From: Candidatus Harpocratesius repetitus
Lineage (GTDB): Archaea; Asgardarchaeota; Lokiarchaeia; Sigyniarchaeales; Promethearchaeaceae
NCBI GenBank assembly: GCA_021498095.1
Contig: JAIZWK010000001.1
Location: 300,001 to 332,000, forward strand
Direction: 5' to 3'
Length of the DNA: 32,000 nt
This document shows, piece after piece, positions 1 through 3,495 of the stretch. Each line of letters starts with the position of its first letter. Position 1 is the stretch's first letter. The notes under the pieces are model-generated. The model ran no database searches. It was not told the origin of the DNA and worked only from the letters and a program-made list of their open reading frames with translations. The position numbers were made by a program, and so were the translations under genes.

Positions 1-151
1 CTTCATCGGATGTTTCATATTGATTTAGATCTGCAGTTAAATTAGGATAAAGTAGGGGTAATCCAAAATACCCTCCCGCTCCAATAATTATCAATGTTAG
101 AAATACACTAATAATCACCGTTCCAAACATTGAAGATGAATTTTTCGCCAT
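1..151 (-). CDS. Partial (runs off the window edge) hypothetical protein with N-terminal signal anchor
   Basis: Read manually: ATG at 151 gives MAKNSSSMFGTVIISVFLTLIIIGAGGYFGLPLLYPNLTADLNQYETSDE, open to base 1, with one hydrophobic helix; purine-rich AAAAGGAAGG upstream. Confidence 0.7.
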   Translation of the reverse strand, partial: MAKNSSSMFGTVIISVFLTLIIIGAGGYFGLPLLYPNLTADLNQYETSDE

Positions 152-268: not shown

Positions 269-574
269 TTAATTCTCTGCAGAAATCCGTCGAAGTTCAA
301 ATAATGCATTCAATTCATCCAATATTGCCCTCTTTGATGATTGAACATTTATTGGTTTAGGAGCAATTCTTGGAGGTAGTCTAAAATGTGGAGTAGATCT
401 TAAAGTACCAACTGTTGTACTAAGAGTAGAAGAAGGTAATTGTTTACGATTTACAGATATATCACCTTTCATGATTAATTGTTCAAAATTGTTGTTTAAT
501 TTCACTAACATATTGGACATTTGAGCGATCATTTCTTTTATATCTATAGATGTAGTCAAGGACATTCTGGGCAC
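269..574 (-). CDS. Small hypothetical protein: coiled-coil, S/T linker, Pro-rich segment, C-terminal WH2-like motif
   Basis: 101-aa ORF (GTG at 574, alternative ATG at 565), not overlapping other genes; C-terminus LPPRIAPKP...KRAILDELNALFELRRI. Confidence 0.65.
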   Translation of the reverse strand: MPRMSLTTSIDIKEMIAQMSNMLVKLNNNFEQLIMKGDISVNRKQLPSSTLSTTVGTLRSTPHFRLPPRIAPKPINVQSSKRAILDELNALFELRRISAEN

Positions 575-835
575 AAAACAGGTATTATTTCCAGTAATTA
601 CTCCATTCCATCTTCGATATTGATGTACAATGGCTCGAATAGTGGAAGATATTCTTTTTTAGGGCGTCCTAACATAGGATAACACATGATCAATGTGATT
701 TAAACATTTTCAAAATATCAGATTACGAACTGACTTGAAATAGATGCTTAAGATAGTGTACGCTTTGCTCATAAATTTCAACTAAATTGCCAAAAATAAA
801 TATTTGAAAGATTATTTGGGAATAATTTAAAAAAT

Positions 836-1405
836 ATGGCTTCTCTTAATCATACTATGGATAATTCCAAACTTTTATGGAAACAACGCCAAGAAAAAGT
901 GATATTCCGGAACCAATACATTGGGTTAAGAAATGATGAAGTTGAAAGACCTGACGGGGAATTGGGGCATTATATTGTTATTGAAAATCGGAATTTCGTA
1001 AATGTATTTTGTCATACTCCAAACAATACATTTTTGATGGTATATCAGTATCGTTATCCTTGGAAATGTTTTTCTTGGGAACCTCCATCCGGTATTATTG
1101 AAACAAGTAAAGGTGAAACACCTGAAGAAGCTGCTCGTCGTGAGGTAGAAGAAGAAACAGGATTTAGGGTAAAATCACTAATAAAGCTGGCAAAAGTTCA
1201 TCCATTTGCAATGTGTGCGGGATGGGCGCATGTATTTTATGCCGAAGTCGTTCACTCTGGAAATCAACATTTAGATCCAGGGGAATTTCTTATATTCGAG
1301 GAAAAAACACCAGTTCAAATTGAAAAATTAATTGAACAAGGCGTTTTTTTACATGGAATGTCGCTGTTAGGTTGGGAAATAGTCAAAAAACAGTTTTTAA
1401 AATAA
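836..1405 (+). CDS. Nudix hydrolase (ADP-ribose pyrophosphatase-like)
   Basis: Nudix box GIIETSKGETPEEAARREVEEETGF, plus upstream VYQYRYP and WEPPSG typical of the ADPRase subfamily. Confidence 0.92.
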   Translation: MASLNHTMDNSKLLWKQRQEKVIFRNQYIGLRNDEVERPDGELGHYIVIENRNFVNVFCHTPNNTFLMVYQYRYPWKCFSWEPPSGIIETSKGETPEEAARREVEEETGFRVKSLIKLAKVHPFAMCAGWAHVFYAEVVHSGNQHLDPGEFLIFEEKTPVQIEKLIEQGVFLHGMSLLGWEIVKKQFLK

Positions 1406-2841: not shown

Positions 2842-3495
2842 ATGGGAGAAAAAAAGAAAGATTACGTGCGATTTTCAGTATCAGTTCCAAGCGATCTTAA
2901 TGAAGAATTTGAAATGTTGCGAACAAAAATTCATTTAAGCAGATCAGATGCGATTCGTCGTGGAATGCGTTTGCTAATTAATGCAAATGTGGAACAAATT
3001 AGCAAAGCTGAAGATATTGAGGTGCTAGGAACTATTGCATATATTGAAAAAGCACATGTTCATTCAATCTCGCCTAAATCGTCTGTTAAGCCTCAAAGTA
3101 ATATAAACATGAATTCACTGAAAGCTTCTGAGAAGGATTCAAGAATCGAACATAACCATATTCATGATCACAAGCACATCAATGATCATAATCATATTCT
3201 TGAACCTCTTTCCCATTCTATACAACAAAAAGGAGAAATTTCAGGAGAACAATATTATTTTCCTGTAGATCAATTAGAATTCATCCAAATTAACGATCTA
3301 CAACATAAGTTTTTAGAAGAAATCATTTCAACGACTCATATTCATGCCAGTCGTGAAAAATGCATGATTTTAATAGCAGTTAAGGGTAAACTTACACGTA
3401 TTAACGCTTTGATGCAAAAGTTAAAATCATTCAAAACAATTCAAAATCTTCAATTTTTAGCATTAGAAAAGTATTCAATTAATAAAAATAACTAA
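2842..3495 (+). CDS. nikR: NikR-family nickel-responsive ribbon-helix-helix regulator with His-rich insertion
   Basis: N-terminal RHH (VRFSVSVPSDL...SRSDAIRRGMR); C-terminal ACT-like domain with QH...HIH...C ligand pattern (LQHKFLEEIISTTHIHASREKC). Confidence 0.82.
   Translation: MGEKKKDYVRFSVSVPSDLNEEFEMLRTKIHLSRSDAIRRGMRLLINANVEQISKAEDIEVLGTIAYIEKAHVHSISPKSSVKPQSNINMNSLKASEKDSRIEHNHIHDHKHINDHNHILEPLSHSIQQKGEISGEQYYFPVDQLEFIQINDLQHKFLEEIISTTHIHASREKCMILIAVKGKLTRINALMQKLKSFKTIQNLQFLALEKYSINKNN

Follow-up and report, generated by a model that had tools for sequence, protein, structure and literature searches.

The question raised by this locus is whether a short reverse-strand open reading frame (ORF) in the genome of Candidatus Harpocratesius repetitus encodes a small protein with a function of its own or is a part of something else. 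The ORF lies in a stretch of 32,000 nucleotides, called the window below, which corresponds to C1:300001-332000 of the closed 4.36-Mb contig of the host genome. The earlier note on this DNA described an N-terminal helix, an S/T-rich linker, the segment LPPRIAPKP and a terminal WH2-like helix, and, reading the product as an autonomous small protein, proposed it as a candidate actin regulator. The anatomy and its coordinates proved accurate, and the terminal helix KRAILDELNALFELRRI occupies exactly nucleotides 284-334 of the window; the linker between helix 1 and LPPRIAPKP is S/T-rich and disordered. The autonomy was not borne out: the ORF is the 3' fragment of a GTPase gene equipped with a start codon derived from an insertion sequence (IS). 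The features of the locus are listed in Table 1. The use of a GTG start (572-574) would extend the product to 101 aa and the ORF span to 269..574(-).

Table 1. Features of the relic locus and its surroundings, in window coordinates
Feature	Position	Strand	Description
Called ORF	269..565	(-)	98 aa from ATG 563-565, stop TAA 269-271; chimeric
Native remnant	272..557	(-)	Counterpart by homology in P0002 (398-aa syntenic GTPase): residues ~292-398
C-terminal helix KRAILDELNALFELRRI	284..334	(-)	Residues 78-94; best-conserved element of the family
Proline-rich segment LPPRIAPKP	353..379	(-)	Residues 63-71, within the disordered linker
Helix 1 IKEMIAQMSNMLVKLNNNFEQL	476..541	(-)	Residues 9-30 from the ATG; heptad-like, shortened stalk helix of the module
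IS fragment	561..850	(-)	290 bp, ~95% identical to the closest copies; part of a ~1.6-kb IS-like element
Transposase stump MIMCYPMLGRPKKEY...	598..693	(-)	31-aa N-terminal piece, ending at a stop absent from intact copies
Divergent NUDIX hydrolase gene	836..1405	(+)	Syntenic anchor shared with the same-genus genome G002

The match of the ORF to a profile built from 11 homologous tails (E 1e-22, model positions 16-125) and the conservation of its C-terminal helix show that it is not a chance reading frame. In the alignment of tails, residues E84 and L85 are invariant and F89, R92 and P64/66 are near-invariant; the ORF keeps all the residues that are invariant in the family, and its frame is open over 98 codons. 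As the earlier note had expected of a genuine motif, conservation is concentrated there, the C-terminal helix being the best-conserved part of the homologous tails. The ORF is entered as a protein in NCBI nr; the Pfam search revealed no domain in it at E<=1, and no ribosome-binding motif is evident before its ATG.

A six-frame search of 40 relatives found a single homologue of the ORF, located in the same-genus genome G002. Neither the ORF nor the tail of this homologue, used as queries in word-based searches, brought up anything beyond the ORF itself, and the HMM built first, from two sequences, retrieved only low-complexity S/T/P-rich giants in an exhaustive search. In G002, a TPR-like gene and a divergent NUDIX gene enclose a gene encoding a 398-aa protein, P0002, and the ORF occupies the equivalent place here, with flanking genes collinear between the two genomes (DNA identity 73% for the TPR-like gene and 69% for the NUDIX gene). 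P0002 consists of three parts. The N-domain is helical and weakly matched by DUF4332, the G domain is of the Arf/Rag-like type (Pfam Arf 1.9e-22, Gtr1_RagA 1.3e-19), and the tail, comprising residues ~292-398, can be aligned with the whole length of the ORF (MAFFT identity 40%; BLASTP identity 30% across 113 columns, E 5e-10). The best structural matches of the AlphaFold 2 (AF2) model of P0002 are LokiRagO (8yl2), Arl2/3, Arf and Asgard ArfR (PDB 8oum/8ouk); the counterpart of ORF helix 1 in this model is the helix 293-333. The 'EF' head segment (EPEY/EPEF...), present in P0002 and in the stand-alone proteins described below, is replaced in the ORF by IS sequence.

The remaining parts of such a gene are absent from the locus: the gap between the ORF and the NUDIX gene measures only ~260 bp, and the search upstream of the ORF revealed no trace of a G domain, only noise at E>=0.5. 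No intact gene fusing a GTPase with the tail was found elsewhere in this genome, where the best GTPases are paralogues 27-34% identical with roadblock-type C-termini. The contig of a third genome from this genus breaks off at this locus. Compared with the C-terminal extensions of Asgard Arf/RagA-like GTPases, the ORF is homologous residue for residue, syntenic and placed in the same tree group, whereas the G domain and the N-domain present in those proteins are missing from it.

What adjoins the tail instead is a piece of a mobile element. Positions 561-850 of the window have nine other copies in the genome (84-95% identity), in which the similarity runs on past both sides; at least seven of them lie within near-full elements of ~1.6 kb (for example, G000:C1:2063706-2065312, locus L131), each with one 460-aa ORF on the strand corresponding to that of the ORF studied here. 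About 24 further end pieces of ~103 bp, equal to window 744/748-850, are scattered through the genome. The 460-aa product has a zinc-ribbon-like N-terminus and matches DDE_Tnp_IS240 (E 9.3e-5) with 23.0 bits, below the 27-bit Pfam cut-off. The fragment in the window comprises the upstream region of the element and the first ~44 transposase codons, and it lies, transposase upstream region included, in the same orientation as the ORF. In the alignment, the breakpoint between the fragment and the tail falls at about 558-561, directly after the ATG, and the likeness to the element stops just after ...CCCAGAATGTC. Both the ATG at 563-565 and the GTG at 572-574 are IS sequence, out of the transposase frame; the first two to three codons of the ORF are IS-derived, and the native tail begins from about codon 3. 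Logan contigs, made by an independent assembler from two DNA runs of one sample, break at 590 and at 744-850, and the depth is raised there, as expected for a repeat. The arrangement resembles IS-mediated truncation by DDE-transposase insertion sequences in that the element of ~1.6 kb is multi-copy and has a single transposase ORF, a fragment of it adjoins a broken gene and both flanking genes are affected; it differs in that only a 290-bp internal-to-end piece is present and that the transposase scores below its Pfam cut-off (23 bits vs 27).

The fragment reaches into the NUDIX gene as well, the first five codons of the called start (MASLN..., 836-850) lying inside it. Since these codons belong to the IS fragment, the true start is probably the ATG at 857, at the equivalent of which the orthologue in G002 begins (MDNSKLLW). 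On the other side of the relic, between it and the TPR-like gene, lies a gene for a 201-aa predicted membrane protein (window 2-151(-) and further upstream; L001:775-1380). This gene is missing from the syntenic interval of G002 and represents a second rearrangement, so the locus has been rearranged more than once. A contig from a public run has ~140 additional bases inserted between positions 243 and 242 of the window, together with a 2-base deletion at 181 and two substitutions, which points to variation of the spacer downstream of the relic between populations or strains. Elsewhere in the window (2842-3495(+)), a NikR-like regulator composed of RHH and NikR_C domains contains a histidine-rich insert, HNHIHDHKHINDHNHI, between them.

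The locus is very probably the relic of an Arf/Rag-like GTPase gene truncated in a rearrangement involving the IS-like element. The starting gene would have been an Arf/Rag-like small GTPase with a tail, of which the ORF represents the last ~96 codons; its 5' part of ~880 bp, encoding the helical N-domain and the G domain, would have been lost in the rearrangement, leaving a 290-bp piece of the ~1.6-kb element next to the tail and an ATG provided by accident. Since this piece is cut on both sides, at least two events would be needed, insertion and then deletion or recombination. The IS fragment is ~5% diverged from its closest copies, and the truncation is therefore not brand new. An IS-generated truncation of a GTPase-borne copy of the module is what is new at this locus.

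The direction of the change is indicated by the maximum likelihood tree of 29 tails, where the ORF shares a clade (support 99/98) with four tails carried by GTPases from the same taxonomic family, and all 20 stand-alone proteins, including that of this genome, are placed apart. Given this tree and the fused orthologues in other genera, the fused gene appears to be ancestral, with the 5' part lost here, rather than the fusion having arisen in the relative; the polarity is drawn from the tree and those orthologues and not from a dated strain series.

The relic is probably non-functional, as suggested by the loss of the N-terminal head (model positions 1-15 of the profile) and of most of the long stalk helix found in the stand-alone forms, by the lack of an evident ribosome-binding motif, by the dead transposase stump upstream and by the intact stand-alone copy in the same genome. 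Any transcription would start from the IS fragment. Nevertheless, the relic might be kept as a working mini-gene, with a promoter supplied by this fragment, which includes the upstream region of the transposase in the same orientation, and with the accidental ATG as its start of translation. Such a mini-gene would act like the stand-alone paralogues, which are clearly functional genes, or compete for their partner; the intact frame with every invariant residue and the entry in nr agree with this. We consider both the retention and such an activity unlikely: the head and most of the long helix are gone, no ribosome-binding motif precedes the ATG, a full stand-alone copy already exists, and conservation is inseparable from recent ancestry. 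Between this genome and G002, dN is 0.32 for the end helix, 0.62 for helix 1 and 1.29 for the linker, as against 0.18-0.22 for the flanking genes, and with dS saturated between the ORF and the G002 tail, only these relative dN values are usable. By a rough estimate, an open frame of this length would be expected to last by chance for the time implied by the ~5% divergence in only about half of cases; some residual function of the relic may still exist, considering its open frame and retained invariant residues.

Being a truncated copy, the ORF nevertheless leads to a family of intact proteins. The profile of 11 tails matches 290 of the 400 Asgard genomes sampled; for the two families of the class with the best sampling, the matches amount to 13/13 and 131/135 genomes. 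By far the commonest architecture is a stand-alone protein of 120-180 aa, sometimes encoded in tandem. In the second architecture, the module forms the tails of Arf/Rag-like GTPases of ~380-460 aa belonging to at least two paralogue groups; in one of these groups (~420 aa; L136:1055-2311(-), G015:C78) the tail has the stalk and the end helix and almost no proline tract (…RLRVLDELKDLFAKKKRLDL). Many genomes of the family to which G015 belongs contain both fused paralogues and the stand-alone gene; the relative genome G010 has the stand-alone form only, a protein of 152 aa (G010:C1:2628799-2629254), and no close P0002 orthologue. The third architecture was seen once, in a 356-aa HEAT-like/wHTH protein with a complete C-terminal module (…RAALNEELKKVLLKRK; L137:977-2044(-), G046:C1). 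Matches confined to model positions 2-98 were suspected of representing one more architecture, but proved to come from ordinary stand-alone proteins whose linkers are long.

In the genome studied here, an HMM of the end helix finds two loci only, the ORF and the intact stand-alone gene (G000:C1, 1,118,111-1,118,521). The stand-alone proteins begin with a head M-x-E-E-F; in the AF2 model of the stand-alone protein, a predicted helix spans 17-75 (pLDDT above 90 for residues 31-70) and is separated by a disordered arm from the end helix, 112-133. The arm is rich in GPP/GPPPPP tracts, and homologues carry PPPPPPP or (GPP/GPPPPP)n at the site of LPPRIAPKP. The arm is followed by P-x-S-[LA]-R-x-A-[ILV]-[MLQ]-x-E-L-K-x-L-F-x-[KR]-[RKM]-[KR]; across the family, E and L of the end helix are invariant, and F and one R/K are near-invariant. 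The long helix probably oligomerises. All database members are hypothetical proteins of Asgard lineages without a Pfam domain, a single member labelled as bacterium being probably a mis-bin, and the literature examined on Asgard actin regulators and Arf GTPases contains no description of the module. The module thus appears to be undescribed and Asgard-restricted, and it is portable, being found as a separate protein, in GTPases of at least two paralogue groups and on a HEAT-like protein.

Two neighbours of the stand-alone genes may be mentioned. In 17 of the 22 loci examined in one large family of the class, an all-helical protein of ~207 aa is encoded beside the stand-alone gene, usually just upstream and on the same strand (L045, L052-L062 and others; e.g., L052:2014-2631), and the orthologue in the present genome (L130:1501-2121) is not adjacent to the module. 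One language-model search placed BAR, FAM92 and Arfaptin clusters nearest to this protein (0.81-0.87), the same search with the orthologue from this genome gave no usable match, Pfam searches gave nothing, and a sequence profile run against the PDB found only weak vinculin-tail and designed coiled-coil matches (E>=0.005); the BAR likeness is a weak lead. In G046, a gelsolin-repeat protein (Pfam Gelsolin 9.2e-5, above the cut-off; L024:1-559(-), G046:C5) is encoded ~1 kb from the stand-alone gene and adjoins a roadblock-sized ORF of 112 aa, an arrangement seen in this one genome only.

The earlier note had aligned the end helix with WH2 motifs without gaps, and this alignment stands for the ORF and the closest GTPase tails, which read LRRI, LRKI, LRNL and MRGI at the LKK-type position. 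The spacing in the ORF from the core of two hydrophobic residues, xx and a hydrophobic residue to LRRI is identical to that of WH2, where basic residues likewise follow ~6-8 positions on, and the order of a Pro-rich tract and then a short amphipathic helix is shared with WASP, WAVE, WIP, MIM and VASP. The proposed scan with the WH2 HMM, on the other hand, gave nothing for the ORF or the family: Pfam WH2 (PF02205, cut-off 23.1 bits) matched neither the ORF (E<=1) nor eight full members (E<=5) nor 29 C-terminal pieces of 32 aa (E<=10), and in a six-frame scan of the whole genome neither module locus was matched. The single match of the model in the genome lies in a 494-aa open frame (G000:C1:3989012-3989077(-)) and is below the cut-off as well (12.8 bits, E 0.69). 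A profile of the end helix run against PDB sequences retrieved nothing but a designed coiled coil and two proteins of no relevance, with no WH2-bearing chain among them.

The residues themselves tell the same. The L/M of the LRR/LKK element is kept in the closest GTPase tails and fails beyond them: most members have K/R in place of the Leu, and a one-residue shift of the hydrophobic position is seen in other classes. The absence of these residues from homologues, named in the earlier note as a refutation of its reading, is in part what is observed. What is conserved is the amphipathic core, I/L/V, then L/M/Q, two residues of which the second is the invariant Glu, and L. WH2 motifs have a Gly break at a position where the end helix has a conserved hydrophobic residue and Phe, and they lack the invariant Glu and the Phe of the module, in which the motif lies at the very C-terminus of a protein with a coiled coil or a GTPase. 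The earlier note had warned that such a short match can arise by chance. A loose pattern (two hydrophobics, xx, hydrophobic, x5, [LM][KR][KR][ILVT]) occurs 8 times in the 3,357 long ORFs of this genome and 8-17 times in shuffled sequences. By every sequence test, the end helix lies outside WH2; the motif is real through its conservation and not through WH2 likeness.

With its IS-derived start codon and its truncation, the ORF itself is a poor candidate for an actin factor. An autonomous product combining an oligomerising helix, a profilin-recruiting Pro segment and a WH2 on G-actin, that is, a minimal nucleation or elongation factor, is very improbable, in spite of the gapless WH2-like spacing seen in the ORF and its closest GTPase-borne relatives. 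The WH2 model and the end-helix profile, as described, find no connection to WH2, the LKK-type Leu is mostly K/R, a hydrophobic residue and Phe stand at the site of the Gly break, and the loose pattern occurs at chance frequency. Published Loki profilins, as cited in PMC8410842, did not bind VASP polyproline.

For the family, the picture is less one-sided. FH1/VASP-like GPPPPP tracts directly precede the helix in the stand-alone relatives, the family is Asgard-only, and the eukaryote-like actin of Asgard archaea is more than 90% conserved within most of the class. In view of these FH1-like tracts, the confinement of the family to Asgard archaea and the extremely conserved Lokiactin, actin together with profilin is the leading named candidate for the partner of the end helix, though a tentative one. 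As context rather than evidence on the module family, a Lokiactin co-immunoprecipitation in L. ossiferum enriched an Arf GTPase (UYP48373.1) and detected two BAR proteins below significance (10.1101/2025.11.30.690169). The fuller proposal that the module is an Asgard-wide actin-assembly adaptor, with a stalk, a profilin-recruiting arm and a thymosin/WH2-like helix binding the actin cleft, is rather doubtful.

The features of the module can be accommodated by a more general scheme, in which it would serve as a tether: the long helix and the flexible proline arm would present the end helix as a docking peptide to a conserved partner. This scheme is suggested by the portability of the module, the helix suited to oligomerisation, the flexible arm and the end helix conserved residue by residue. 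The invariance of specific residues across the phylum, one of them acidic, favours a protein partner over lipid. Apart from actin, small shares of the probability fall to G domains or their regulators and to the membrane, and the remainder falls to other proteins.

The hypervariable or polybasic C-termini of eukaryotic small GTPases are targeting regions, and the C-terminal helices of MinD and FtsA are membrane-targeting. By analogy, the end helix might be a membrane-targeting amphipathic helix and the proline arm a mere spacer, and we hold it improbable that either the role or the analogy applies. The helix does lie at the extreme C-terminus after a flexible linker, some GTPase tails have polybasic runs (KKNKRTKKK, KKMKKGRKKK), and the 29 end helices analysed have a net charge of about +3.3, with a mean hydrophobicity H of 0.18 (0.00-0.36) and a mean moment of 0.31 (0.17-0.40). 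The flexible linker and the short positive terminal element are common to the module and the above C-termini; the module differs from them in its weak hydrophobicity, its residue-level conservation and its existence as a free-standing protein with a coiled-coil stalk. Lipid-binding helices conserve physical character rather than sequence, and phylum-wide invariant residues, Glu among them, are unusual for such helices. Asgard Arf-like GTPases are reported to associate with membrane by amphipathic helices (PMC11914678), which is in favour of a membrane role; the H and moment values are, however, low for lipid-binding helices and borderline against the ranges quoted in that study, with about half of the 29 helices falling below its H range.

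The C-terminal helix of MglB docks on MglA, and in a similar way the end helix might dock, in cis or in trans, on the G domain of a small GTPase or a roadblock/longin regulator. On this view, the stand-alone proteins would be effectors or regulators of GTPases and not cytoskeletal factors. The repeated fusion to Arf/Rag-like GTPases in at least two paralogue groups and the abundance of such GTPases and roadblock partners in Asgard genomes fit this possibility; on the other hand, the single-chain AF2 model of the fused protein predicts the end helix with moderate confidence only (pLDDT 51-72), with no sign of docking in its summary, and the module is present on the non-GTPase HEAT-like protein, too. 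The docking itself, and likewise the effector role for the stand-alone proteins, seem to us to be of low probability.

If the actin-assembly reading of the module were true, the module in many lineages would be hard-wired to an Arf/Rag-like GTPase and would represent a prokaryotic forerunner of the GTPase-controlled WASP/WAVE/VASP-type factors, and the genome studied here would show a GTPase-coupled copy lost to a transposon and a free-standing copy kept. The locus itself calls for caution: an attractive 'minimal regulator' is a gene fragment made by a transposon, and its resemblance to WH2 does not exceed chance. Tests should be directed instead at the fused GTPases found in relatives or at the stand-alone gene that is intact here (G000:C1:1118117-1118518). 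To our knowledge, neither a nucleator nor an elongation factor has been reported for the filaments of Asgard actin, profilins and gelsolins being all that has been characterised, and for this reason the family is worth testing. It is a phylum-wide unannotated family with an oligomerising helix, FH1-like tracts, a near-invariant docking helix and repeated fusion to Arf/Rag-like GTPases, and it opens concrete and cheap experiments in cultured Lokiarchaeia.
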